A stretch of 58,553 nt of DNA from a virus (lineage: Duplodnaviria > Caudoviricetes): IMG/VR virus record IMGVR_UViG_3300025000_000115, positions 1 to 58,553 of that record. One strand, written 5' to 3'. The position numbers and the translations under genes are program-made. Positions 4,663-54,200 of this stretch are shown here, piece by piece (within the stretch, counting starts at the first letter, position 1; every line of letters starts with the position of its first letter). A model generated the notes under the pieces. The model was not told the DNA's origin and ran no database searches. It saw only the letters and a program-made list of their open reading frames with translations.

Positions 4663-5598
4663 TTAGCTCCTTTTTCGTCGCTCCGCTTGCCGCGCCTTTT
4701 CCCTGGCAAGATACTCGGCCATCGGTATTTTGTCGTCATCTGCATCGACGTTACCGCCGCTATTGAGTGGCTTGATCGGGTCGGGAGCGGCTGACACATG
4801 CTTCACGACTGGTTGTGGTTTATTTATGATACTGGCTTCAATTCGCCCAATTTCCCTCAGTTGTGTGACCGGGCTGAGTGAAGCCAGTCGCAATACTTCG
4901 GGTTTGTTATTTGCAAAATATCTGAGTAGCTTTGGACCGACATCCGATTCGCGTATAGCTTCCTGCATCGGGTCGGTCAGCGGCAGGTGATTTGGTCCCG
5001 GCAGATGAAAAGTATCTGCAATGGTTTTGATATCGGGATCAAGTGCCGCTTCTTCATTCAGCCGTTTTTGAAAACTGGCTGTAATCTGTGCATCGGTCTG
5101 TTGACGTTGGTGTTGCTGTGCCTGAGTGCCAAACTCCTGACGCGCCTCGTATCTCGCCAAATCGACGATATACTTACGGTCAGCTTGTCTGAACGCCGCG
5201 TCAGCAGCCTCGAAATCAGAGTATTCTTCAAACTGATTAGGTAACGGCTGTACGGGTGGCTCTGGTGGACCGGCGGGTTTGGCGACCGGTGTAGGTGCTG
5301 CTGGTGTAGCCACAGTGGGTCGCTCGGCAATTCCACGGTAGTAAGCCGCTTCCTCGCGGGCTGTCTGTGCGGCAGCTTCAGCAGCTTGACGCTTGACGCG
5401 TTCCGCTTTAGCGGCAGCACGTAACCCAGCTTCAGGTGTGCCGGCAGCGGGTTCGTTGCTGTCGGGTGGGTCCGGTGTTACTGGATCGGGTGTAACCGGG
5501 TCCGGTGTTACTGGATCGGGTGTAACCGGGTCCGGCGTGTTGCCTCCACCATTCAACTCAGGATTGTCAAAGACCAGATGTACGAATTTTCTACGCAT
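4663..5598 (-). CDS. Scaffolding protein
   Basis: Between portal and coat; GPKLLRYFANN...LREIGRIEA..SAAPDPIKPL motif; PDPVT repeats. Confidence 0.8.
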   Translation of the reverse strand: MRRKFVHLVFDNPELNGGGNTPDPVTPDPVTPDPVTPDPVTPDPPDSNEPAAGTPEAGLRAAAKAERVKRQAAEAAAQTAREEAAYYRGIAERPTVATPAAPTPVAKPAGPPEPPVQPLPNQFEEYSDFEAADAAFRQADRKYIVDLARYEARQEFGTQAQQHQRQQTDAQITASFQKRLNEEAALDPDIKTIADTFHLPGPNHLPLTDPMQEAIRESDVGPKLLRYFANNKPEVLRLASLSPVTQLREIGRIEASIINKPQPVVKHVSAAPDPIKPLNSGGNVDADDDKIPMAEYLAREKARQAERRKRS

Positions 5599-5892: not shown

Positions 5893-8116
5893 TTTGTCCT
5901 CCCATTAATTGCTGGTCCGCTGGATGAGCACCCGGTGCCGCGTGAAGCTCACTGAGGATACCCAATACGGCTGACCGCACCTCTTTGATTTGTTCGTCCT
6001 TAGACTCGGCCATTTCTTTTGCCAGTTTGACGAGTGCGACTTTCTGCTCAATCAGACCTTTTTGCTGGCGCACCTCTTCCGTGCGCGACTTCTGGTGCAT
6101 CAACATGACCTGTGGCGGTGGCGGTGGTTGATACGGCTTCTCGCCCTCGTGTAATGCAACCAGACCTGGAGGCATGGTCTTACGTATCCTGGCAGCAAGT
6201 TTTTCACCCTGCTGATTGTCCATGATACCTTCGATAATCAGATCGCCACCAAGTTTACCAATGGACGGTACGCTGTTAATCAGCGACATCATCTGCTGAG
6301 ATGCTTCCTGGCGAGCGGTCGCGTAAGACGGGCCGACTGTGACCACAACTTCATACTTGCCCTCGGCAATGTCATTCAGCTTTGCCATATCGTCGCCGCG
6401 CTGATACATCTCAACGAGTTTCGCCGGATTCATACCGCGATAAGTGGTCGGGAAGCGTTGCAACTTCTCGATTGCCGCTCTGACGGTGGTGTTAATCGGC
6501 ACGACAGTCTCGGTGTCGTCGATGTTACGAATACGAACGTCCCGCTCCGTGTCATACAGGGTCGGAATCATGGAGTTCATAATCTTGGCGCTGTGCTCGA
6601 TACCGCGATTCAGTTTGTAAGCGTATACGTAGCTACCGACATCTGACGGCTTCTGCTTGGCATACACGGCTGCACCGGTTCGTTCAGGACCACCCTCGCC
6701 GATATCGCCGCCGAAAATACCAATAACCCGCCTCAAGTTATCCACGGCTCTTGCTGCCTGGTTGAACAATGCAATAGGTGGGTCGCCGGGTCGAGTGCGT
6801 ATTGGCGGTGGTGCCGGAACGCCTGACTCCACGTCCATGTTATAAAGCAGGAACGGATTGTTCTTGACGTTGGCGTTCTTATAGTCTTCCTCAAATCCTT
6901 CGACTTGCCGCGGTGTCAGCATGTATGGTGCCTTGGGCGACATGGCAATTGCCTCGGCAAGTGCCGTTTCACTGTAGTTCACCATTTTCTGCTGGTCGCG
7001 GGCGTCTTTGATAAGACCCTTGACGTACTGCTTGCCCTCGATATTCTGCGTGACACCGAGGATCTGAACGATGGGTACATACTCGCCGGGGAAATCCTCA
7101 CCATCCAGCAGCTTCTGAGTATGCTCCTTGTCGGTCATGTTCTTCGACTTTGCCGGTCCAAGAATCGCCGTGGCAGTCAGTGTGTAGTATTTAACTTTTT
7201 TAACGTATGTCGCTTTCTCTTTGACTATGGTGGGGGGCAGCAGCCGCCGATGCTGCGGTGCTGCACCAGGTAATACAGGCAAAGGAGCGGGTAACGCCGT
7301 AGGGGAGGGGGCCACGGGTGTTACACCACTCGACTTTGCCTGACTCTCAGCCATCAACTCGTCTGCTTCCTCGCGGGTAATTACTGTGCCGTCTTCCATC
7401 TGGCACATCATTATCTTTTCGGATTTGACGACGAAGTATTCGGCCAGCGTTATGAAATCCTTATCGAAATACAGTTCGTCCTTCATGCCAAGACCGGTTT
7501 TAATTATCTCGGACGGCCAATCGGCATCAGGCCACTCGTCCTCAAATTGATCGCGGGAGTACTTGGTCAGGATGAAACCGAACTTGGCGTCGGCACCGGC
7601 CTCGTCCTTGCGTGTCGGGTCCAGGTAGACGTTGAATGGATTGGGGATCGCTTCAAGGTACATCTCTTGGATAAACGGGTTTTCTTCGGTGTAGCGGGTG
7701 TTGATACGCCACGCGCCATAACCACATGCCACCTGGCTCTTACCGGCAGTCATGTAGATGTCTTCGCCGTTGGAGCGGTATTCGGTATTGGATATGATGC
7801 CGGAACGAATCTTGGCTATGTGCTGAGAGGATTTGTAGTCGCCGGGCTTGACTTTAGCTCGTGCGCGGTTGTGCAGCATTTCGCCGACAACCTGATTGAC
7901 GAAGACAGGGAACAGCGGGACGTTCAGGCAGGGGCGACCTTCCAACTTGCGACGCTTGACTTCCTCGTCATCCCACATGTTATCGCCGTTGAGCATCTTC
8001 AGACAGTTAACGGCGATTTTACGGTTATGATCGTCGGAGTCGATACACTTCTTCAGCTGCTTCTTGGCTTTATCAAGAAACTTCTGGAGTTTTTCGTCGG
8101 CAGTATTTTTAGCCAT
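5870..8116 (-). CDS. Portal protein, P22 gp1-like
   Basis: GRPCLNV, CGYGAWRI, GLIKDARDQQKMVNY, YEVVVTVGPSYATARQEA motifs. Confidence 0.9.
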   Translation of the reverse strand: MAKNTADEKLQKFLDKAKKQLKKCIDSDDHNRKIAVNCLKMLNGDNMWDDEEVKRRKLEGRPCLNVPLFPVFVNQVVGEMLHNRARAKVKPGDYKSSQHIAKIRSGIISNTEYRSNGEDIYMTAGKSQVACGYGAWRINTRYTEENPFIQEMYLEAIPNPFNVYLDPTRKDEAGADAKFGFILTKYSRDQFEDEWPDADWPSEIIKTGLGMKDELYFDKDFITLAEYFVVKSEKIMMCQMEDGTVITREEADELMAESQAKSSGVTPVAPSPTALPAPLPVLPGAAPQHRRLLPPTIVKEKATYVKKVKYYTLTATAILGPAKSKNMTDKEHTQKLLDGEDFPGEYVPIVQILGVTQNIEGKQYVKGLIKDARDQQKMVNYSETALAEAIAMSPKAPYMLTPRQVEGFEEDYKNANVKNNPFLLYNMDVESGVPAPPPIRTRPGDPPIALFNQAARAVDNLRRVIGIFGGDIGEGGPERTGAAVYAKQKPSDVGSYVYAYKLNRGIEHSAKIMNSMIPTLYDTERDVRIRNIDDTETVVPINTTVRAAIEKLQRFPTTYRGMNPAKLVEMYQRGDDMAKLNDIAEGKYEVVVTVGPSYATARQEASQQMMSLINSVPSIGKLGGDLIIEGIMDNQQGEKLAARIRKTMPPGLVALHEGEKPYQPPPPPQVMLMHQKSRTEEVRQQKGLIEQKVALVKLAKEMAESKDEQIKEVRSAVLGILSELHAAPGAHPADQQLMGGQNGNEGQG

Positions 8117-8224
8117 GATGCTGGTCTGCTCCTGTTTGAGTACCAGTCTTGTCGTGCCACCCCCATTGGGCTACACGTTTTGCCAAATATCCTTACGCTA
8201 ATGTAAACAGTTGTCAAGATAATT

Positions 8225-8524
8225 TTATGCGGTGTCCCACTCCGCTAAATTAGGCACACCGAGCGGATTTTCCTTTGCCAGGCGTGCGTCAACTCTTGCC
8301 GGTAGTTCGGCTATGAACGTTTCGTTGATCTGCAACAACTCCTGCGCTGCCCGCTGAACGGCTGGCGGCGGTTCGGCAGAACCGTCCTCGTATCGTTGAT
8401 AGGTAGACTTCGGGATACCAAGACACAGTGCGATATCGGTCATACTGAAGCCGATTTTATGTCGTAATTCTTTCAGATTCATGCGTACAGTTTCCGTATC
8501 GTTTGTGCGATTCTGACCCATCAC
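8225..8524 (-). CDS. XRE-family HTH DNA-binding protein
   Basis: LKELRHKIGFSMTDIALCLGIPKSTYQRYEDG. Confidence 0.8.
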   Translation of the reverse strand: MMGQNRTNDTETVRMNLKELRHKIGFSMTDIALCLGIPKSTYQRYEDGSAEPPPAVQRAAQELLQINETFIAELPARVDARLAKENPLGVPNLAEWDTA

Positions 8525-12795: not shown

Positions 12796-13124
12796 TCTGC
12801 CTCCCAACCGTACTGGTAGTCGCCGCAATTATAGCAAATCACACCTCCAGGCGACAGCATAAAAATATGGCACCCGCATCCACACGCCCAGGCGACAGTC
12901 GGTTCACACGGATACCGAAGTAGTGCTTTATCAGTGCCGCATTCGGGGCAAGTCAGGTGGATGGTTCCTACGGGTGCAACTGCTACAAACTCGTGCTCAC
13001 ACTGAGTACAAAACGCCTCGCCTGCCAGATGAGGCCCACGTTCAATTGCTGTTGGAAAATGCATTAACTCGCCCATCTGTGTGCCTCCACCGTGTGCATA
13101 CCTTACTGCCTGATGGTGTGTCAA
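12792..13124 (-). CDS. Cys-rich zinc-ribbon protein
   Basis: CTQC, CPEC, CGCGC, CYNC. Confidence 0.6.
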   Translation of the reverse strand: MTHHQAVRYAHGGGTQMGELMHFPTAIERGPHLAGEAFCTQCEHEFVAVAPVGTIHLTCPECGTDKALLRYPCEPTVAWACGCGCHIFMLSPGGVICYNCGDYQYGWEAE

Positions 13125-13702
13125 GGGGTTTTATTGGTGACGGCTGCCGCTCGCTTACATATCCGATAGACTGTCGCCACACCAATGCCCAGGTCATCAG
13201 CTATATCCTTGTGAGGGATACCCTGCCGCCGCAGTGCCAGTACCTGTGGGGTCGCTGCGTCCCTGATTACTGGTGCTTTGCCTTTATACACGCCAGCTGC
13301 TTGTGCTCGCTTGATACCCTCACCTTGTCGCTCCAGCATAATCTCTCGCTCGAATGTAGCGACTGCCCCCAGGATGGTGAGCATCAGTTTGCCGGTCGGG
13401 GTGGCGGTATCCAGATTGATGTTGAGGATGCGGAAGGCCACACCTTTCTTTTCCAGTATGTCCACGATTTGTAGTAGGTGTTTAGTACTGCGGGCGATAC
13501 GATCCAGTTTACAGACGGTGAGCGTATCGCCTTTTTGACAGTACGCCAGTGCTCGTGCCAACTCAGTTCGTGAGTCGTCTGCGCCTGATGCTTTTTCTTG
13601 GTACACTTGATCACACCCTGCGAACTGTAGCTGTTGCAATTGAATGTCTAGTGATTGGTCGTTACTGCTAACTCTTGCGTATCCTACTGATTTGACGCTC
13701 AT
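13121..13702 (-). CDS. Small serine recombinase (resolvase/invertase) with C-terminal HTH
   Basis: GYARVSS, EKASG, KLDRIARS, FEREIMLERQGEGI, IADDLGIGVATVYR. Confidence 0.95.
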   Translation of the reverse strand: MSVKSVGYARVSSNDQSLDIQLQQLQFAGCDQVYQEKASGADDSRTELARALAYCQKGDTLTVCKLDRIARSTKHLLQIVDILEKKGVAFRILNINLDTATPTGKLMLTILGAVATFEREIMLERQGEGIKRAQAAGVYKGKAPVIRDAATPQVLALRRQGIPHKDIADDLGIGVATVYRICKRAAAVTNKTP

Positions 13703-18700: not shown

Positions 18701-18731
18701 CAGCATACAGTAATTTGATTATATGTCAACA
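18701..18731 (-). promoter_or_regulatory. Duplicated sigma70-like promoter, copy A
   Basis: TTGACA-16 nt-TATGCT; 29/31 identical to 22515-22545. Confidence 0.75.
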
Positions 18732-18776
18732 AAATAATCTAAATTATTTTAGCGGGTGGATCGGCTCCAGCCTGGG

Positions 18777-18880
18777 GGCTCCTGGCTCCTGGCTCCTGGC
18801 TCCTGGCTCCTGGCTCCTGGCTCCTGGCTCCTGGCTTTTGGCTCCTGCTCCTGGGGGCGGGCCTGGGGGCTCCTGCTCCT
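18777..18880. repeat. 7-mer tandem array (GGCTCCT)x8 plus degenerate copies
   Basis: Read directly from sequence. Confidence 0.9.
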
Positions 18881-18972
18881 GGGGGCGATCAGTCTTAATG
18901 AGAGAATTTTAATTAGAATAGGCTGTTCACAGCGCCCTGGGTGCATATACGGGCGGCAAACAGATTAAATCG

Positions 18973-19060
18973 TTTGGTCGGATTTTTATAAAATGTGTCA
19001 GGACAATTGGTGAGGGGCTTTGGTCGGATTTTTATAAAATACTGCTGGACAATTGGCGAG
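18973..19060. repeat. Two copies of a 42-bp unit, period 46
   Basis: TTTGGTCGGATTTTTATAAAAT-N6-GGACAATTGG(T/C)GAG at 18973 and 19019. Confidence 0.85.
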
Positions 19061-19062
19061 TC

Positions 19063-19089
19063 GGAGTGCTGTCTATCGGGCAGCACTCC
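19063..19089. terminator. Hairpin after the cassette-containing operon
   Basis: GGAGTGCTG/CAGCACTCC 9-bp stem; no clear U-tract. Confidence 0.45.
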
Positions 19090-19133
19090 TTAGTCCCGTC
19101 AAATGTTTTACATCAGAGCATAGGCATCACCTC

Positions 19134-19448
19134 CTAATCATAGACATATAACGGAGTACGTTTACATGATTTCCTGATTTTCTCCATTGCTGTGCTGAAT
19201 CCGCATTCCTGCCAAAATTGTCCGTCTACGTCGATTTTAAATCGGCCACGCCTGCTTCCTGGATGGAAGAGCAATACATGAGTTTGACCGGAAATCAGAT
19301 TGTCAACTGTGATTCTAATGCAGTCATTCGGGAGTTCAGGTGGATATGTTCGTGGGTTTTCGTCGTGATATTGTTGCCAACGCGCTTCTGCACCACGCCT
19401 GCCACGTTCTGAATTTTTCACCCTGCGTTGTTCACGAGTTAGTATCAT
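19134..19448 (-). CDS. Hypothetical protein (GRRGAEARW motif)
   Basis: ORF track; basic N-terminus. Confidence 0.55.
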   Translation of the reverse strand: MILTREQRRVKNSERGRRGAEARWQQYHDENPRTYPPELPNDCIRITVDNLISGQTHVLLFHPGSRRGRFKIDVDGQFWQECGFSTAMEKIRKSCKRTPLYVYD

Positions 19449-19498
19449 TTTACTATCCGCGCTTCCTTACATAATTAGGTTAATAGCTGGTTATGCGA

Positions 19499-19882
19499 CT
19501 ATACTCGTTTGCCGCCGCGCTTAAATTCCCTGTGCCGGTTCTTCTCGACTTTCGCCAGAATTGCAGCTTTGAGGTCGATCCCCATGCCATGAGAAAGACC
19601 GATCAACCGAATGCCCACGTCTGCAAGTTCTTCATCAAAATTGACACGATCTCCCTTGCGGAACGCTTCCAGTGCTTCGGCTACCTCGGAAACTATCAGC
19701 ATCAGAACAGCAGGGATTTCGTGCTTATCCTCCCAATCCTCAGACGTGGTTACTTTCCAGCCATGCAGGAGCTTGTTGGAATGTATTTCAGCACCAACAT
19801 CGCTTAACCAGTCGCCGCACACAGTCGGGCGGTCACTGGCTCTGATCGAATCTTCTATACCTTCATCCCATGTTGTACTCAT
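19499..19882 (-). CDS. MazG-like all-alpha NTP pyrophosphohydrolase
   Basis: LMLIVSEVAEALEAFRK...EELADVGIR...KVEKNRHR. Confidence 0.85.
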   Translation of the reverse strand: MSTTWDEGIEDSIRASDRPTVCGDWLSDVGAEIHSNKLLHGWKVTTSEDWEDKHEIPAVLMLIVSEVAEALEAFRKGDRVNFDEELADVGIRLIGLSHGMGIDLKAAILAKVEKNRHREFKRGGKRV

Positions 19883-19918
19883 TTCCTTATCCTTTCCGCC
19901 CGCTGGTGGGCTTGATCG

Positions 19919-20419
19919 TTATATTTTCAGAAACGCCACCCAATGAGTTTGGGCTTTTTTACCGCTACGGTGGCCGTATAGCGGCTGATGTGGTGTAAGC
20001 GCCAGAATGTCCCGCAGAGGTATTTCAGCATCACACCATTTAAAAATGAGCGTCCCCATCGGTTTCAGCACTCTGAAGCATTCAGCGAAACCGCCTGAAA
20101 TCATTGCTTGCCATCCGTCACCAAGTTTTCCATATTTCTTTTCCAGAATACCGGTACCAGTGCCGCCCAATCGCTTTCCGGTGTGGTGTGGCGGATCAAA
20201 AACAACGTGGAAAAACGAATCATCGTCAAAGGGTAGCGCCGTAAAATCAGCCTCAATGTCCGGCTTCACAGTTAGAATAGCGCCGTTTTTGTATGCCCTT
20301 CCCGGCTCCACGATAATATCCTCAGTTCTGCAATCTACGAACATGGCTCTTGCGTCCTTTTTATCCATCCACATCATTTTGCAGCTGCAACATGCGTCTA
20401 AAACAGGTGGTAATTGCAA
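19919..20419 (-). CDS. Cassette 1: phage-type class I SAM methyltransferase
   Basis: VLDACCSCKMMW, DFTALPFDDDSFFHVVFDPPH, ECFRVLKP.GTLIFKW. Confidence 0.85.
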   Translation of the reverse strand: MQLPPVLDACCSCKMMWMDKKDARAMFVDCRTEDIIVEPGRAYKNGAILTVKPDIEADFTALPFDDDSFFHVVFDPPHHTGKRLGGTGTGILEKKYGKLGDGWQAMISGGFAECFRVLKPMGTLIFKWCDAEIPLRDILALTPHQPLYGHRSGKKAQTHWVAFLKI

Positions 20420-20435
20420 TTTCGTCTCCTTGAAA

Positions 20436-20493
20436 ATATAACAAAACGCTCGAAGCCGACCGCTTCGCGGCGGTTCATCTCAAGCCGTTATAG
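20436..20493 (+). other. attC-like site 1
   Basis: ATATAAC AAAAC GCTCGAAGCCGACCGC TTC GCGGCGGTTCATC TCAAGCC GTTATAG; from memory, resembles aadA-type attC. Confidence 0.88.
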
Positions 20494-20736
20494 CGAACGC
20501 GATGGCTCGCATTTATCGCTGAATGAATCGGCAAGTTTTTCCAACGTGTCCAAGTCGCTGAACATGATTTTGCGGGATTTCTGATCGTCACCTGACCGAC
20601 AATGATCAACGATTATGCCGTAGAATTTGCCGCTATCTACACCCTGATAGGCATGAACTCGTATCATTGGAGTACAGATATTGCCTAATGTGCCGATTTC
20701 AACCACCTTCAAATCTTCAATTTTCTGAATCATCAT
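20488..20736 (-). CDS. Cassette 2: hypothetical protein (MMIQKIEDL...)
   Basis: GGGGG RBS; stop TAA lies in the GTTA core. Confidence 0.65.
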   Translation of the reverse strand: MMIQKIEDLKVVEIGTLGNICTPMIRVHAYQGVDSGKFYGIIVDHCRSGDDQKSRKIMFSDLDTLEKLADSFSDKCEPSRSL

Positions 20737-20752
20737 TGTCCCCCTGAAATCG

Positions 20753-20815
20753 CTATAACCAGTGCTCGGACGCCGCCCGATAAGGCACGGCGGGTCAAGC
20801 ACATGGTCGTTATAA
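20753..20815 (+). other. attC-like site 2
   Basis: CTATAAC..GTGCTCGGACGCCGCC..GGCGGGTCAAGCAC..GTTATAA. Confidence 0.82.
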
Positions 20816-20830
20816 TTCTTGCCGTAATTG

Positions 20831-21277
20831 TTACACCGAAGTGTCTAACGCTTCCACATCCCAAATTATTTCATGGGTGTCCTCTGGAAATCTCTCCCTC
20901 ACAATTCGCTGGGCAAACTCCAGAGCAAACTTAGGATCAGTAAACCCCAACTTCAGAGCGTCGTAATCTGCTGTCTCTGCGATCTCCTCGTATGGGATCG
21001 TATCATCCCAGTTCAAGCGGAAACCCTTATGCTCTTTTGGGTGATCCCATAGCACAACCTCTCTGAATCCATCCTCCTCTTGAATGAGTAGAGGAATGTC
21101 TTCAGCGGTGAATGAAACATAGTAATGGGTAGCGTTTTCATCTTCGTTTACCCATGTCGTTGCTTTAATAACCACCTTACGTTTGTATGCAGGAAACATT
21201 GCAGAGCGAAGTAAATGCGCCCAGTTGGGATAATTTTTTAAGTTGCCACCGAAAGATGAACCACACGATTTATACAT
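20831..21277 (-). CDS. Cassette 3: hypothetical protein (MYKSCGSSF...)
   Basis: AAGGAGGT RBS. Confidence 0.65.
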   Translation of the reverse strand: MYKSCGSSFGGNLKNYPNWAHLLRSAMFPAYKRKVVIKATTWVNEDENATHYYVSFTAEDIPLLIQEEDGFREVVLWDHPKEHKGFRLNWDDTIPYEEIAETADYDALKLGFTDPKFALEFAQRIVRERFPEDTHEIIWDVEALDTSV

Positions 21278-21314
21278 AATACCTCCTTGTCCTTTGTTCT
21301 GTTGCACCACCGAA

Positions 21315-21375
21315 TTATAACAATTGGCAGGGCGACGACGCGCTTCGCTTGCGTGTCAGCCGAAGCCCGTTATAG
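21315..21375 (+). other. attC-like site 3
   Basis: TTATAAC..GGCAGGGCGACG..CGTGTCAGCC..GTTATAG. Confidence 0.78.
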
Positions 21376-21624
21376 TGCTCTCTGATTCCATGCAGCGATT
21401 GCATTGTTCGCTATTGCAAAAGTCCCTTGCAATTTAGGCTGTACCGGACAGACTCCAAATGTCTCGCAGTTGACACTATGGACGCCAAAATGTTTTCTCA
21501 ACGTCGGTACTAATCCGCACCAGGGACAGGGGAGCAATTCAGCCAAAACAGGAGTGTCTGTTTTTGTGTCTGGACATTCTTCAGAGTGGTCAATATTGCA
21601 GTCGCAACAACTGATTTTCGCCAT
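21370..21624 (-). CDS. Cassette 4: Lar-like (restriction alleviation) zinc-finger protein
   Basis: LLPCPWCG...C....C...AIAAWNQRA signature; AAGGAGG RBS. Confidence 0.7.
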   Translation of the reverse strand: MAKISCCDCNIDHSEECPDTKTDTPVLAELLPCPWCGLVPTLRKHFGVHSVNCETFGVCPVQPKLQGTFAIANNAIAAWNQRAL

Positions 21625-21654
21625 TGAGTTTCCCTCCTTCGTGGCAACCCCGCA

Positions 21655-21716
21655 AGATAACCAGCGGCAGGTGCTTATTTCGCTGCGCTCAAAAGCACAG
21701 CCTTATGACGTTAAAT
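21655..21716 (+). other. attC-like site 4
   Basis: AGATAAC..GGCAGGTGCTTATTT..AAAAGCACAGCC..GTTAAAT. Confidence 0.8.
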
Positions 21717-21875
21717 TGACACTGGATTTCTGACCTCGTTAATACGGTCAAACGCCCACTTGTTTTCCGGCATGTCATGTAATCGAACAAACCCAACTCC
21801 AAAATCACACTGAACAAATTTTCCATCAGTGGATTCTTGTATCAACATTGCAAATTCTTTTTCTGAGATGTTCAT
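21711..21875 (-). CDS. Cassette 5: 54-aa hypothetical protein MNISEKEFAMLIQESTDGKFVQCDFG...
   Basis: Hand translation (not in ORF track); AAGGGG RBS; stop in GTTA core. Confidence 0.6.
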   Translation of the reverse strand: MNISEKEFAMLIQESTDGKFVQCDFGVGFVRLHDMPENKWAFDRINEVRNPVSI

Positions 21876-21891
21876 GATTACCCCTTTCACA

Positions 21892-21954
21892 ATTTAACCA
21901 GATAAATGCACTCTGGCTGCGATTCGCTTGCAGGTGATTTACAAGCCGTTATGT
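21892..21954 (+). other. attC-like site 5
   Basis: ATTTAAC..TAAATGCACTCTG..CAGGTGATTTA..GTTATGT. Confidence 0.8.
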
Positions 21955-22119
21955 TCTGCCTCCCCTGACCGCCAACACGACGGCGTGCCAAGCGTTCTGT
22001 TCTACAGGCGAACAGTGCTTCCACATATCCACCAGTTTTATTCCGTTTCGTGCATGATAATAAGCATTGCACGCCCGCTGTGCATCTTCTATCTGTTGTT
22101 CCAGGTTATCTTGCGGCAT
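21949..22119 (-). CDS. Small hypothetical protein whose TAA stop lies in the last GTT core
   Basis: GGAGG RBS before MPQDNLEQQ. Confidence 0.55.
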   Translation of the reverse strand: MPQDNLEQQIEDAQRACNAYYHARNGIKLVDMWKHCSPVEQNAWHAVVLAVRGGRT

Positions 22120-22300
22120 ACAGAACCACCTCCCTGATGTAGTCGCTGACGGTGCGCCCGTCGCGTTCAGCAGCAAGTGTGATCCTGGCAATCTCATCGT
22201 CATTATACCGCTGCATCAGCCGCCGGTATCTGGTGTCAGGTTTGGTGCTACCGACGTGACGACCTGCTCCTGGTCGAACACCGCCTCGTGGATTATTCAC
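22106..22300 (-). CDS. Small DNA-binding protein (RGG.R.GAGR plus RHH-like)
   Basis: RGGVRPGAGR...AAERDGRTVSDYIREVV. Confidence 0.7.
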   Translation of the reverse strand: MNNPRGGVRPGAGRHVGSTKPDTRYRRLMQRYNDDEIARITLAAERDGRTVSDYIREVVLYAAR

Positions 22301-22514
22301 CTGCCACCTCCCCGACGATTGGTTTCAACTGCACGTACTGCCGCGAAACCGATCAGAAGCATGACCAGTGTACTGCGGGCTTCGACTCTCATACCAACCA
22401 CCACCACAGTGCAGTTAACACTACAACCCACAACGTGACCACTATCCAAACTATTACACCACCGGTCGTTCTCTGGTCTTCTGTCTGACACATATAATTA
22501 ACCCTCCTGATACA

Positions 22515-22545
22515 CAGCATACAGTAATATGATTATTTGTCAACA
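22515..22545 (-). promoter_or_regulatory. Duplicated sigma70-like promoter, copy B (upstream of the cassette operon)
   Basis: TTGACA-16 nt-TATGCT; near-identical to 18701-18731. Confidence 0.75.
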
Positions 22546-23063
22546 GGTTTTATCACCAGATGTCCTTTTTCTTTCATTCGTTCTAATACTGACACGTTGT
22601 CTACTCCCCAAGCAATCAGCATTGACCCGCAACCTGCACCACTGCCGTCTGTAACCCCTAACCCGTCAACAAATTTGATCCTACCTGACAAAAACAAAAT
22701 TGCATCGGCTTTTGCCACATAGTCGTGATACCACTTGCAATCAGTTCGAGCGAAAAGCAATGATATACCGTTACGGTGTTGGTGCATTTTAGCTAACCAA
22801 TGGGTAGTAAATTTACCGTAAGGAGGGTTTAACCACACTCTACCACTCCACTGCTGTAATAACCCATCGTCCTGCTCTGTGTAATATTTCCAGACAGGTA
22901 TCCAAGGTATTCCGCCCACAGGTTGACAGGGATCGAGGTCAAAGATTACACCCATCTCTTCAAATATCGACGGGGGGGTGTACCAATCGACCGACTTATT
23001 TGCAGCACTATCATGTGTAAATCCCGTTGACCGCGTGCTCACCGTGCCACCCCACCGCCCCAC
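22533..23063 (-). CDS. Phage DNA N6-adenine methyltransferase (Dam-like)
   Basis: DWYTP, FDLDPC, VWLNPPYG, ARTD, GRIKF. Confidence 0.88.
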   Translation of the reverse strand: MGRWGGTVSTRSTGFTHDSAANKSVDWYTPPSIFEEMGVIFDLDPCQPVGGIPWIPVWKYYTEQDDGLLQQWSGRVWLNPPYGKFTTHWLAKMHQHRNGISLLFARTDCKWYHDYVAKADAILFLSGRIKFVDGLGVTDGSGAGCGSMLIAWGVDNVSVLERMKEKGHLVIKPVDK

Positions 23064-25360: not shown

Positions 25361-25725
25361 ACCTCACCGCCAGCCAGCGTGAGTGCCGCTTCCTGTTTGA
25401 GTGCCTGTGGTGCTGTCATAGCCACAGGATGCCGGTGTGCCAGACCTTCACCCACCACGCTGAGAACACGACGCCTCACCGCTTCATGCATCACGGCTGT
25501 TCTGAGGTCACTTGCCGTCTGATAGTAATGACTCACGAGCGCCTGACTGACACCGGAAGCTATTGCCACACGCACCAAGCTTATGGCGGTGTAGCCGTGT
25601 GTCTCGGCAAGTATAACAGCAGCAGCCAGGATAGCAGCCTTACGGTCGGCGGGGTGTTGACGGTGACGATAGAGGGTGGGGGTGGTCATGTCAGGCTCCA
25701 TTGGTCGGCAAATGCTTCCGACCAT
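25357..25725 (-). CDS. TetR-like HTH protein
   Basis: RKAAILAAAVILAETHGY..VAIASGVSQALVSHYY. Confidence 0.75.
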   Translation of the reverse strand: MVGSICRPMEPDMTTPTLYRHRQHPADRKAAILAAAVILAETHGYTAISLVRVAIASGVSQALVSHYYQTASDLRTAVMHEAVRRRVLSVVGEGLAHRHPVAMTAPQALKQEAALTLAGGEV

Positions 25726-26333
25726 CCATTATATGTTCGACTGCGTTCTTTCCATCTGTTGGGTCTGGGTGTAAGTTTGTTCTGCCCGCTGTCGGTCTGG
25801 TTGCCCCACCGCTTTTTGCCATCAGCCGTGATGCGAGGGGCGACCAGACATGTCGGCTGTAATGGTGGTAAGTTCTTTATCCACAGGCAGGTTTTCTTGC
25901 TGGCGTCATCTCCATACTCATTCGGCTGAATATATTGTGTCGGTGGCATGAAAACTGATGATAGTACACCAACTGGGTTTTCAATTGCTATGTGTTCAAT
26001 CGGTGCGTTCCATAGACATTGTACAAACTCAATTGCTCTCTCTCTTGCTTCTCTACGGGCAGTTCCTACGAGTGTTTCCGGTAAGACTTTCTGGTGGTAA
26101 GGCCCATCACCGTACGCCCATTCTGAACTGTTGGTAAGATAAGTACAATCAGGGTGAAAAATACCCAAGTCCCATCCGTAAAATGGTGTCAGTAGCAGTC
26201 GCACGTCACACTGTAAGTGGTATGGACTATTATCTTCGGCAGGCAACAGGTCACACGACCAAGCATTATGACCACGGCGGCGGAACGATTCACGCGTGCG
26301 ACCTGACGACTCACAGCCGATCAGTACGTTCAC
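25686..26333 (-). CDS. Short phage DNA cytosine-methyltransferase-like protein
   Basis: VLIGCESSG, AWSCDLLP, FHPDCTYL, IAIENPV, KKTCLW, ERSRTY; GTG start at 26333. Confidence 0.75.
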   Translation of the reverse strand: MNVLIGCESSGRTRESFRRRGHNAWSCDLLPAEDNSPYHLQCDVRLLLTPFYGWDLGIFHPDCTYLTNSSEWAYGDGPYHQKVLPETLVGTARREARERAIEFVQCLWNAPIEHIAIENPVGVLSSVFMPPTQYIQPNEYGDDASKKTCLWIKNLPPLQPTCLVAPRITADGKKRWGNQTDSGQNKLTPRPNRWKERSRTYNGWSEAFADQWSLT

Positions 26334-26797
26334 AGTTCCTCCGGTGATGTGATGAACGCTGCACGTCCACCCATCTGATTGATGAAAGTTATAAAGGCTA
26401 GTTGCGCCCGCTCTCGGTCGGTGGCTGTGTAATGCCAACCAGTGGGCTTACACTCATACCCCGTGAAAACACCATACAGACGACCGCAAGGACAGGTGAC
26501 GGGTGTAACTCCTACCAGGTCAGGTGACTTGACTTTATTATTGATTGCTGGCGTGTCGTTGCAAAGTCCGTAGCGCACTGGCCTCCCGTTTTCTGCGGTT
26601 GCTACGCCTGAGTTGTTGCGGAAAAGCCGTCCGTAAGTCCGTTTGGCGTGCTCTATCCTCACAGCGTTCTGCACCGCAGCCTCACTGCTGGGTGCTGCCG
26701 TGCTACTGTCTGGCGTCATGGCGGCTCCGAGACAGGTAAGCAGGTCGGTCAGTGCGGCTGGTGGGATGGACCAACGGATTGCCCATGCGTGGATCAT
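26330..26797 (-). CDS. VRR-NUC-like PD-(D/E)xK nuclease
   Basis: SEAAVQ, LFRNNSG, PDLVG, YECK, AQLAFI..GGRAAF. Confidence 0.8.
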   Translation of the reverse strand: MIHAWAIRWSIPPAALTDLLTCLGAAMTPDSSTAAPSSEAAVQNAVRIEHAKRTYGRLFRNNSGVATAENGRPVRYGLCNDTPAINNKVKSPDLVGVTPVTCPCGRLYGVFTGYECKPTGWHYTATDRERAQLAFITFINQMGGRAAFITSPEEL

Positions 26798-53268: not shown

Positions 53269-54200
53269 ATCGACTCATTAACTATCATCGCTTTCACGAA
53301 ATCCATTATGCGCCCATCCTTCGTCGTGTAGGTCGGTGGCATGTCTACGTCGTTCAAGTCAATATTGTCGATGTTATACCACTTGATTATTGCATATCGT
53401 ACACCGTTAAACGTCAGACGGTAATACGATATCTTGCCTGACGGTGCAAGTACCAGCTCACCTGGATGATTGCCGAACCACTTGATGACATCCGATACGA
53501 AGATGTCGGCGTTATTGCGCTCGTTCCACACTTTAGATGCTATTTTGATTCGCACCACACTGAACAACTCGTGATAATCTTCAGCAAGGGTGACGACAGC
53601 AGGCAGTTCTTCAAGACTGTCAATCACGAAGAAAATAGTGTCGAACTTGACGCGGTGTGACACTATATTAGCGATTACTGCCGGAAACCAGCGAGCTTCC
53701 TTATGATACGACAAACCGATCTGTACGACGCCGGTATGGTCGGTAAGGCGGTTAAGATACTCTCTGAATCCTAACCCGCTGTCTTCCAGACCGTAACCGT
53801 TGGTCAGCATGTACGCAGGGCCGATCTGCTGCACTCGATCAATTATCGCGAATATTTCAGGATGCAGCGTCGGCTCGCCGCCGGTCAGGATATACGGTCC
53901 AGGTGCCTGACGGCAATTTTCCAGTATGGTTTCCACCGGTATGTCTGACTGACCTCTCTCATAAAAGCAGTATTTGCAGTTAATGTTGCATCGGGTCGTC
54001 ACATCGACCAGGTGTCCAGCGTAAATCTGGTCAGGGTTTTGTTCACAGTGCTGGAAAAACGACGAGTCGGACTCCAGCAGACCGACAGTCATGCCGTGGT
54101 CAGGACAACTCTTTGCAATTATCGCCTGCCCTCCATCGCTACAAACGACCGCCTGAACCTCCTTGTAACAGGTGTTACATAGACTTCTGGTCACTCTCAT
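53265..54200 (-). CDS. Radical SAM enzyme with MJ0619/Tes-type N-terminal rubredoxin-like site
   Basis: C8,C11,C32,H35 (SLCNTC..KSCPDHG); DVTTRCNINCKYC; LTGGEPT; LTNG. Confidence 0.85.
   Translation of the reverse strand: MRVTRSLCNTCYKEVQAVVCSDGGQAIIAKSCPDHGMTVGLLESDSSFFQHCEQNPDQIYAGHLVDVTTRCNINCKYCFYERGQSDIPVETILENCRQAPGPYILTGGEPTLHPEIFAIIDRVQQIGPAYMLTNGYGLEDSGLGFREYLNRLTDHTGVVQIGLSYHKEARWFPAVIANIVSHRVKFDTIFFVIDSLEELPAVVTLAEDYHELFSVVRIKIASKVWNERNNADIFVSDVIKWFGNHPGELVLAPSGKISYYRLTFNGVRYAIIKWYNIDNIDLNDVDMPPTYTTKDGRIMDFVKAMIVNESI

Follow-up and report, generated by a model that had tools for sequence, protein, structure and literature searches.

Positions 19491-21954 of a groundwater phage record of 58553 bases (the window, meaning that whole stretch of DNA) hold six single-gene cassettes with integron-type recombination sites. 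Six attC-like sites lie within 2.2 kb, with lengths of 58-63 nt except for one of 123 nt, and all six cassette genes are on the strand opposite to the attC top strand. The six-cassette array is read as a CALIN that was probably placed, and could in principle be reshuffled, by an IntI acting in trans. This reading is drawn from the site family, its strand, the boundaries, the box signature, the lack of a tyrosine recombinase in the phage and the presence of IntI in kin phages, all of which are direct observations.

Array layout and cassette genes

Sites were scored with three covariance models. R1 was built from the sites of the window and of a related locus, L004, with its structure set by hand because RNAalifold on a MAFFT alignment returned only 5 pairs. 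R2 was built solely from the 15 sites around the intI of phage contig G001:C222 (hereafter C222), and these had been located with R1, so R1 and R2 are not fully independent. R3 was built from six class 1 plasmid attC sites. R1 and R2 agree on the ends of the five shorter sites (w1-w5), all on the + strand.

The array begins at a left boundary (19481..19499, +) at which the backbone, ending in TAATAGCTG, passes at G19490|T19491 into TATGCGAC. Neither R1 nor R2 found a further attC site to the left of 19490|19491, and because there is no hairpin on its left, this junction is taken as attI-like or as a secondary point of insertion. The box at the boundary, GTTATGCGA, is complementary at 8/9 positions to TCGCTTAAC at 19801-19809. 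Cassette 1 (19491..19918) carries a MazG-like NTP pyrophosphohydrolase ORF at 19499-19882 (-; Pfam PF03819, 26.4 bits against a cut-off of 22; phrog_3301, E 7e-18) and the long attC of 123 nt (19802..19924, +; R2 27.7 bits, E 3e-4; R3 14.3 bits, E 0.48), whose R'' (GCTTAAC) is contained in the MazG ORF, at its 5′ end, and whose R' is GTTATAT. Since the GTT box at 19918 terminates the R2 site 19802-19924, the MazG gene is itself a cassette. The MazG leader had also been considered as an attI-like half-site, a candidate dropped once R2 identified it as the 3′ portion of the long attC.

Cassette 2 (19919..20487) carries an orphan DNA methyltransferase ORF at 19919-20419 (-; phrog_954, E 1e-56), the TAA stop of which lies inside the TATAAC box, and closes with w1 (20436..20493, +; R2 41.1 bits, E 1.4e-7; R3 40.3 bits, E 5.7e-8), which resembles the aadA1 attC in its sequence. 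Cassette 3 (20488..20809) has an 81-aa ORF at 20488-20733 (-) and w2 (20753..20815, +; R2 47.2 bits, E 4.3e-9; missed by R3), and cassette 4 (20810..21369) a 148-aa ORF at 20831-21277 (-) and w3 (21315..21375, +; R2 37.3 bits, E 1.2e-6; R3 12.3 bits, E 1.6). Cassette 5 (21370..21710) has a Lar-like restriction-alleviation ORF at 21370-21624 (-; PF14354, 31.2 bits against a cut-off of 28.6; phrog_599) and the weakest of the five sites, w4 (21655..21716, +; R2 21.4 bits, E 0.012; missed by R3). The last, cassette 6 (21711..21948), has a 54-aa ORF at 21711-21875 (-) and the complete site w5 (21892..21954, +; R2 30.7 bits, E 5.7e-5; missed by R3), which forms the right end of the array and whose R' shares bases with the stop codon, TAA, of the backbone gene 21949-22203 (-). 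The 81-aa, 148-aa and 54-aa ORFs belong to no known family and have no Pfam or PHROG match. In a protein atlas the matches to the 81-aa ORF all scored <0.8 and gave nothing usable, nor did the atlas for the 148-aa protein, which has six unnamed metagenomic relatives at 70-81% identity.

The first-pass annotation had described five TAAC...GTTA hairpins separating five single-gene cassettes. The five sequences are exact at the w1-w5 coordinates, and each of these five units has a single minus-strand ORF, preceded by a Shine-Dalgarno-like motif (judged by eye), while the count of cassettes rises to six with the MazG unit. The TAAC-N-GTTA pattern by itself is frequent (it occurs 23 times in the window, 18 times outside the five sites), so the signal rests on clustering, intergenic position, model scores and box pairing.

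Recognition of the sites as attC

In a search of 91 kb with filters off, R2 recovered 5/5 window sites (E 4e-9 to 0.012) along with the MazG site, every one of them on the + strand. Applied to class 1 integron loci totalling 58 kb, the same model gave six matches at E<1, 6/6 of them inside cassette arrays and on the strand coding the cassette genes; five are mapped attCs (aadA1, aacA4, VIM-4, gcuC and arr-3) with identical ends, and one is an unannotated place within an array. With default filters on 162 kb there were nine matches: seven mapped attCs, one unannotated in-array place and one elsewhere (E 3.8). R1 recovered only 2/7 mapped plasmid attC types and gave 0 matches in a negative control of 28 phage loci (289 kb) selected by means of a related Dam gene. 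When 48 IMG/VR loci encoding relatives of IntI (670 kb) were searched, R2 gave 16 matches in 10 loci, 16/16 upstream of intI and with the top strand directed away from the gene, as in the canonical arrangement. Rfam had no match in 19000-23000 at E<=1.

For the attC covariance search proposed in the first-pass annotation, R2 and R3 served as surrogate models and gave mixed results: R2 matched 5/5 window sites, and R3, the plasmid-derived model, found w1 strongly (40.3 bits) and w3 weakly (12.3 bits), missed w2, w4 and w5, and yielded two false matches scoring like w3. Cross-recognition with known attCs, a site family that adjoins genuine intI genes and the signature at the cassette boundaries together support, at the level of sequence, the reading that the window sites would behave as attC.

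Box pairing and folding

The first-pass annotation described the opening GTT box of each unit as the reverse complement of the closing AAC box, and this proved correct, with contiguous runs of 12, 10, 10, 5 (8/10 overall) and 9 bases in cassettes 2 to 6. The boxes of cassette 2, GTTATATTTTCA and TGAAAATATAAC, pair at 12/12 positions, those of cassettes 3 and 4 at 10/10 each, cassette 5 at 8/10, cassette 6 at 9/9 and the MazG unit at 8/9. Combinations of boxes from different units give only 4-7 contiguous complementary bases, and the observed pairing sum, with the MazG unit counted, was reached by 6/5040 permutations. The attC consensus has an inverse core R'' of RYYYAAC and a core R' of GTTRRRY. 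The strict forms fit 2/6 R'' and 1/6 R' boxes of the window (by eye), with AAC and GTT invariant in 6/6; mapped plasmid attCs depart from the consensus too (GCATAAC, GGTTAAC, GTTGAAC).

A single strand of attC folds as an imperfect palindrome in which the R and L boxes pair and the spacer stays unpaired. The hairpins of w1-w5, folded on both strands, are weak: w1 and w2 clearly fold better than shuffled sequences and 3/5 do not (free-fold z for w1-w5: + strand, -1.74, -2.71, 0.06, 0.55 and -0.29; - strand, -1.64, -2.31, -0.71, -0.69 and -0.39). Forcing the R boxes to pair gave bulged stems of -2.9 to -12.6 kcal/mol, and the corresponding values for the aadA1 attC are -18.3 and -18.8. Two single-base bulges appear in the R1/R2 consensus, both on the 5′ arm of the + strand; this corresponds to the 3′ arm of the bottom strand and is the same arm as in aadA1. 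The usual extrahelical bases on the bottom strand of attC, on its R''/L'' arm, are T and G, with G nearer the R box; in w1 and w3 they are T and C, spaced 3 bp and not 6, with C nearer the R box.

Polarity and transcription

All six ORFs, three of them supported by family matches, are on the - strand and all six sites on the + strand, so that every gene is antisense to the attC top strand, a feature that the first-pass annotation had missed. No window cassette has the textbook form, with the ORF on the attC top strand and the attC 3′ of the ORF, and in the plasmid controls attC site and cassette gene share one strand. A consensus scan found a promoter-like site, TTGACA-16-TATGCT, at 22516..22543 (-), upstream of the unit that contains the array, and a second promoter-like copy at 18702-18729 (-). 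An 18-nt element is repeated at 18715-18732 with 3 mismatches, and two matches were obtained in 0/100 shuffles; promoter-like sites overall are not enriched in the scan.

Integrase and relatives

No intI, attI or Pc is present in the window, which is thus not a complete integron. The first-pass annotation had recognised no tyrosine recombinase, and a six-frame search with PF00589 gave 0 matches in the record (97% complete), the same search being positive in 14/14 control genomes. A CALIN is defined as >=2 neighbouring attC sites with no nearby intI (PMC9892861, section 2.1). With six sites within 2.2 kb and no PF00589 match, the window array is therefore a CALIN.

An integrase is present in kin phages. 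C222 (L044, L058-L060) is a 58-kb phage contig with a complete integron, whose IntI scores 316 bits with TIGR02249 (cut-off 265) and is 40% identical to IntI1. It has 15 attC-type sites on both flanks of intI, one of which (53987-54046) is 83% identical to w2 over 60 nt. An IntI of 387 aa is encoded in phage contigs that share the attC type and polarity of the window, and about 80 clusters are listed for this IntI clade. Kin phages carry intI between their replication module and their packaging module, the general location of the window array. Crude gene calls place cassette genes antisense to attC in C222, L004 and L064, as in the window; in C222 the PHROG-supported cassette genes to the right of intI, which is upstream of it, read towards intI while the attC top strands point away. 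C222-type arrays include methyltransferase cassettes and an attI-side junction, the attI region of L044 being placed at about 2440-2530. The C222 record is named for Geobacter and an identical IntI is filed under Acidithiobacillus; no host was drawn from either.

A comparison of relatives for differing cassettes, also suggested at first pass, bore fruit in L004, where 7923-8351 carries the MazG unit (77% nucleotide identity) among other neighbours. L004 cassettes have the same box signature as the window, including a 19/19 inverted repeat. Equivalents of the MazG site were found with R2 in L004 (7908-8033, 28.8 bits) and L005 (7895-8013, 16 bits, E 0.27), and a pattern search for the conserved MazG leader recovered only the L004 record. 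Nucleotide searches with the region and its surroundings against near and distant phages and distant plasmids gave only short methyltransferase matches. Relatives of the window primase were limited to 43%-identical loci with no attC-type sites there, and the search with the 84-aa backbone gene gave no usable relative. The closest DNA polymerases, about 51% identical, are those of Sashavirus-like phages of enterobacteria and of a 'Gammaproteobacteria' phage.

Alternative explanations

The array could be a fossil, in which an ancestor's own intI (as in C222 and L061-L065) was lost, the cassettes became fixed and the sites remain as non-recombining relics. The shared general location of the array and of intI in kin phages points this way, as do the long, weak MazG attC that overlaps its ORF and the low scores of w4 and w5. 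Excision joints were likewise absent from the contigs (as distinct from raw reads) of four runs on two groundwater samples of one study, possibly the source of the record, a result that is not informative. Against this, three box pairs are perfect (12/12, 10/10 and 10/10), which argues for recent events; contigs from those same samples have w1-like and w5-like sites flanked left and right by different sequence, the loose ends being at 20437, 20490 and 21895; and the PF00589 six-frame search found no remnant of intI. On balance we consider a fossil array unlikely.

Far less probable is the capture of a piece of a bacterial chromosomal integron through illegitimate recombination, outside phage biology. 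Such a route is documented in temperate phages of Vibrio anguillarum, which acquired integron pieces in this way according to section 3.1 of PMC9892861, and L004, which is classified as a provirus, encodes an integrase of the P4 type rather than IntI. The cassette genes are nevertheless typical phage accessory genes (the phrog_954 methyltransferase, the Lar-like gene and MazG) and are co-directed with phage transcription against the attC polarity, a direction that an array captured from a bacterium would not have; C222, L004 and L064 have the identical polarity, and no plasmid or phage record matched at the nucleotide level.

That the hairpins merely resemble attC and act instead in termination or RNA processing, or are recognised by a different recombinase, for example the serine recombinase encoded by the phage at 13121-13702, is scarcely credible despite the weak folds, given that an intrinsic terminator with a G+C-rich stem and T run fits only 1/5 sites (w1, minus strand) and is ruled out, that terminator-like patterns are not enriched in the region (7 against 4.6 +/- 2.2 in shuffles), that cross-recognition between the models and known attCs is exact in both ends and strand, that like sites adjoin genuine intI in canonical geometry (16/16), and that the pairing of boxes within their own cassette is the known footprint of G|TT crossover.

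Proposed mechanism and implications

For the preferred reading, a CALIN served in trans, we propose that on the + strand each cassette opens with the TT of a G|TT crossover, followed by a gene on the opposite strand, and closes with an imperfect-palindrome attC and the G of the next crossover. IntI would insert such cassettes and might in principle also excise or reshuffle them, acting on the folded bottom strand of attC, which in the window would be the sense strand of the genes. As the phage encodes no IntI, the enzyme would have to come in trans, and its likeliest suppliers would be either an IntI-encoding kin phage that infects the same cell or an integron of the host. The first-pass annotation had named a host integrase; since kin phages encode IntI with the same attC type (83% identity between C222 and w2), a co-infecting kin phage or an intI-losing ancestor is at least as likely a source. 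The six genes presumably lack promoters of their own and would be transcribed by phage read-through, which we propose as the reason why they lie antisense to the usual polarity. The array may be active at present.

Integrons are known as bacterial stockpiles of resistance and defence genes, and their carriage by phages has been reported only as rare CALINs and captured fragments. Taken alone, the window is a clear, well-bounded further example of a phage CALIN, a more modest result than the broader reading that we put forward tentatively: a phage-borne branch of integrons, with an IntI clade of about 387 aa in several tailed-phage lineages, antisense cassettes, a shared counter-restriction pool and an enzyme borrowed in co-infection. 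Were it true, this clade would sit between the replication and packaging modules, and phage transcription, not a Pc promoter, would read the cassettes, towards intI. The pool would consist largely of counter-restriction genes (methyltransferases, Lar-like and MazG), and phages without an integrase, such as that of the window, would share it and borrow the enzyme during co-infection. It would be functionally apart from the bacterial pool, because the Pc of a bacterial integron would read its cassettes in antisense. Phages would then possess a dedicated gene-shuffling device, separate from captured bacterial integrons, which would explain the fast swapping of counter-defence genes by some phages and offer a tractable case for the origin of cassettes and attC sites, an open question.

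Comparison with known systems

Phage-borne, integrase-less attC clusters are not new. Qi, Rajabal, Ghaly, Tetu and Gillings (2023; PMC9892861) described CALINs in phages, 17 in the set given there, with five DNA methyltransferase cassettes (section 3.4) and recombination of phage attCs by IntI1 in 5/6 tested. Going by the parts of that paper drawn on here, the window resembles these arrays in its single-ORF cassettes and attC arrays, the lack of intI and the methyltransferase cassettes, and is distinguished by its six cassettes and by a site family that also surrounds a phage-encoded intI. Those parts describe TJE1 and PH101 as oriented like bacterial arrays, and relative to that description the antisense polarity of all six cassette genes of the window is new.

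The class 1 plasmid arrays (aadA1 attC of R100) share with the window the imperfect palindrome R''...R', the G|TT crossover and, at the beginning of the cassette, a leftover of R' that is paired by the R'' of the same cassette. They differ in that the window has no intI, attI or Pc, has its genes on the strand opposite to attC, folds into much weaker hairpins (-3 to -13 against -18 kcal/mol) and carries phage accessory genes instead of resistance genes. C222 and the 387-aa IntI clade are alike in attC family, antisense polarity, methyltransferase cassettes and location between replication and packaging modules; they encode IntI and have an attI-side junction, whereas the window has no such platform.

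In the 'reverse' integron of Treponema denticola the array follows intI (Coleman et al., 2004, as cited in PMC4909258). As described there, its integrase and cassette genes are co-directed, as they are in C222 and L061-L065, while the cassette genes to the right of intI in C222 lie upstream and read towards intI, a comparison made by description. The attG route, by which IntI inserts cassettes outside att sites, is described for bacterial genomes and IntI1 (Loot et al., bioRxiv 10.1101/2022.09.11.507474). By analogy with that account, insertion at a plain GTT in the backbone would fit the hairpin-less left junction of the window at 19490|19491.

Layout of the probable cassette array

The window record (58,553 bases, completeness estimate 97%) is that of a tailed phage. 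Its genes include head, portal, terminase, DNA polymerase, primase and helicase, and its nearest named relatives are only ~51% identical, judged by DNA polymerase. Between 19.4 and 22.0 kb every gene lies on the minus strand, and five attC-like sites (w1–w5; 20436–20493, 20753–20815, 21315–21375, 21655–21716 and 21892–21954) lie between genes, as the first-pass annotation had described; the array was extended to six cassettes. It begins at G19490/T19491, with no hairpin to the left, and ends in a complete site, the R′ end box of which overlaps the TAA stop codon of backbone gene 21949–22203. Read on the + strand, the region is arranged as integron arrays are, the insertion point lying on the left and a full attC following the last cassette. 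A long site has its R″ box, GCTTAAC, at 19802–19808, within the 5′ portion of the MazG ORF, and because this box pairs at 8 of 9 positions with GTTATGCGA (19490–19498), the box after the MazG stop, MazG was taken as cassette 1 (19491–19918), giving six units. In L004, a locus with a MazG relative, the equivalent boxes pair without a mismatch for 9 bases or more. All six cassette genes are on the minus strand, and three have family support.

Each unit opens with a GTT box that is the reverse complement of its own closing AAC box. The first-pass annotation had offered this pairing as the signature of cassette insertion; it was found at 12, 10, 10 and 9 contiguous bases, the fourth unit being weaker (5 contiguous, 8 of 10), compared with 4–7 for non-own combinations, and the observed sum was reached by just 6 of 5040 possible pairings. 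The imperfect hairpins fared unevenly: only w1 and w2 clearly out-fold shuffles, and with end boxes forced to pair the window sites give −3 to −13 kcal/mol versus −18 for the aadA1 attC. The hairpins are thus weak, and the bare TAAC…GTTA motif is common (23 places in the window); the observation therefore rests on clustering, position, box pairing and model tests, not on fold energy.

Two copies of an 18-nt element (18715–18732 and 22529–22546) flank the stretch that holds the array; the element carries a promoter-like TTGACA-16-TATGCT on the minus strand, and two matches occurred in 0 of 100 shuffles. A short tandem repeat at 18756–18968 encodes PGSWLLA three times in one frame and QEPGARS repeats in an opposite-strand frame, in overlapping ORFs. 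A small serine recombinase (13121–13702, minus strand; phrog_125 DNA invertase, E 8e-64) is encoded upstream of the terminase. Four DNA methyltransferases are predicted (111–1343, 19919–20419, 22533–23063 and 25686–26438; phrog_2675, 954, 111 and 757), just one of which sits in a cassette.

Covariance models of attC and attC-like sites

Reference attCs were taken from class 1 integrons on plasmids, in which seven types (aadA1, VIM-4, arr-3, cmlA5, aacA4, dfrA1 and gcuC) were located by eye in the gaps between annotated cassette genes. Thirteen phage sites, in the orientation of the window's + strand, went into model R1: 5 window sites, 7 L004 sites and 1 site of L005, a second locus with a MazG relative. 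On 162 kb of plasmid loci it gave four matches, three of which corresponded to the aadA1 attC, in two loci, and to the gcuC attC, with exact ends and on the coding strand of the cassette gene, at E values of only 0.1–0.65; five mapped types were missed in these loci. No match was obtained in 28 phage loci (289 kb) picked for a related Dam gene.

Model R2 was built solely from the 15 sites of the phage contig C222 (below); because R1 supplied these training sites, the R1–R2 chain is not fully independent. Used as a surrogate in an attC covariance search, R2 recovered all five listed sites on the + strand (w1 41.1, w2 47.2, w3 37.3, w4 21.4 and w5 30.7 bits; E 4e-9 to 0.012), together with a sixth window site at 19802–19924 (27.7 bits). 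Eight of the L004 sites were recovered, including the equivalent long MazG site. On the plasmids with filters off, all six matches at E<1 fell within cassette arrays, five being mapped attCs with identical ends and one an unannotated array place; with default filters, R2 gave 9 matches, 7 at mapped attCs, 1 at the unannotated array place and 1 elsewhere (E 3.8). One R2 match is an unannotated 94-nt site between intI1 and dfrA1 on a Providencia plasmid (L014 5520–5613, minus strand), probably the attC of an unannotated first cassette.

Model R3, built from the six plasmid sites that R2 had matched, aligned to the R2 structure, gave 40.3 bits (E 6e-8) for w1 on the + strand, 14.3 for the MazG site and 12.3 for w3. 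Sites w2, w4 and w5 were missed, and two window matches of 11–14 bits lay inside genes. By the R2 and R3 results, w1 scores as close kin of clinical attCs, and the other window sites score as members of a site family found around genuine intI genes, with cross-recognition of known attCs.

A complete integron in a related phage contig

C222, a 58,362-base MAG contig, was the sole record among GTDB species genomes matched by a degenerate pattern from two L004 sites. It is a phage genome (major head, portal, both terminase subunits, primase, helicase, RecT and tail genes) whose intI product scores 316 bits with TIGR02249 (integron integrase; cut-off 265) and is 40% identical to IntI1 over the whole enzyme. 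R1 found 15 sites on a single strand, seven upstream of intI in canonical geometry and eight beyond intI and the helicase, on the other side; judged by eye, the units right of intI also pair their own boxes, at up to 16 of 18 positions. Window site w2 and one C222 site share 83% identity over 60 nt.

The complete integron (C222 4889–10006) comprises intI, a G/TTATGCC junction lying ~48 nt from where intI starts, and 8 or more cassettes, including two for DNA methyltransferases. The eight far-side sites lie between Dam-like, queuine-tRNA-ribosyltransferase-like and other genes, and ~14 kb of the genome is divided into cassette-like units. The Dam-like homologue in C222 (51% amino acid identity over 64 residues) is flanked by attC-like sites.

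The C222 IntI has ~80 relatives (90% clusters; 387–388 aa, 52–79% identity), nearly all metagenomic, on contigs of up to ~59 kb, some named 'integron integrase' at source. Among the six nearest IMG/VR loci (55–68% identity), five have a terminase and portal within 8 kb downstream of intI, these terminases belonging to two PHROG families and that of C222 to a third; the remaining locus carries a Mu-type transposase, and its flank lacks hallmark genes. In five IMG/VR contigs (L061–L065) an IntI 64–68% identical to that of C222 is encoded just upstream of terminase and portal, in phages of different terminase families, and the small gene after intI (C222 4629–4880) is conserved with it (56–81% amino acid identity).

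Among the MazG-bearing loci, L004 is classed as a provirus and encodes an integrase of the P4 type rather than IntI; no integrase was found in L005 or L003, both incomplete records. The L003 MazG has 85% nucleotide identity, and no site was found beside it. In L004, a 65-aa ORF (5248–5455) carrying a DNA methyltransferase motif at its N terminus ends 2 nt short of the first attC box, as though truncated by the array, and a PAPS-reductase-like cassette (6875–7915) lies between perfect 19-nt inverted repeats (GTTAGAATCTGAATCGCGC and its complement).

Strand and gene polarity

In 48 IMG/VR loci with IntI relatives, R2 gave 16 matches in 10 loci, all upstream of intI and directed away from it. Because of this orientation (16 of 16), the + strand R3 match on w1, the plasmid matches, all on the cassette-coding strand, and the site geometry beside intI in C222, the + strand is the attC top strand in the window. 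In textbook integrons, bottom-strand recombination sets the cassette so that Pc reads its gene (PMC13108822); the window cassette genes would be antisense to a Pc-type promoter. By crude ORF calls, the same polarity occurs in C222 (two methyltransferases, the Dam-like gene and others), in L004 and in L064, where two methyltransferase genes lie upstream of and co-directional with intI.

Groundwater contigs

The array region is present in four runs of one groundwater study, which may be where the window itself came from; the runs were compared as contigs. Contigs break at the sites, and separate contigs join partial site matches to other sequence: w1-like segments (20437–20473, 1 difference; 20448–20490, 2 differences), a w5-like segment (21895–21940, 3 differences) and a methyltransferase 5′-end variant followed by a different hairpin past the AAC at 20442. 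Near-identical sites thus occur in other contexts of the same samples, which is not a demonstration of excision; no excision joints were listed for the array region in the contigs of these four runs.

Comparison with known systems

At the level of sequence, there is good support for reading this region as an array of integron cassettes without an integrase. The host integrase acting in trans proposed by the first-pass annotation is one of at least two options, since integrases on kin phages serve the same site family. What deserves attention is that gene polarity is reversed and that the sites are linked to a phage-borne clade of IntI. Our literature search found no work on phage integrons beyond Qi et al., 2023, and, in the texts covered, no account of phage cassettes with antisense polarity. 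Integrase-less phage cassette arrays are a known kind: among 10,705 phage genomes screened, Qi et al. (2023; PMC9892861) report 3 complete integrons and one In0, all temperate, and 17 CALINs (attC clusters lacking an integron integrase), with IntI1 recombining 5 of 6 tested phage attCs and five phage cassettes being methyltransferases. In the Treponema 'reverse' integron, as published, intI is co-directional with the array, which is described as lying after intI (PMC4909258).
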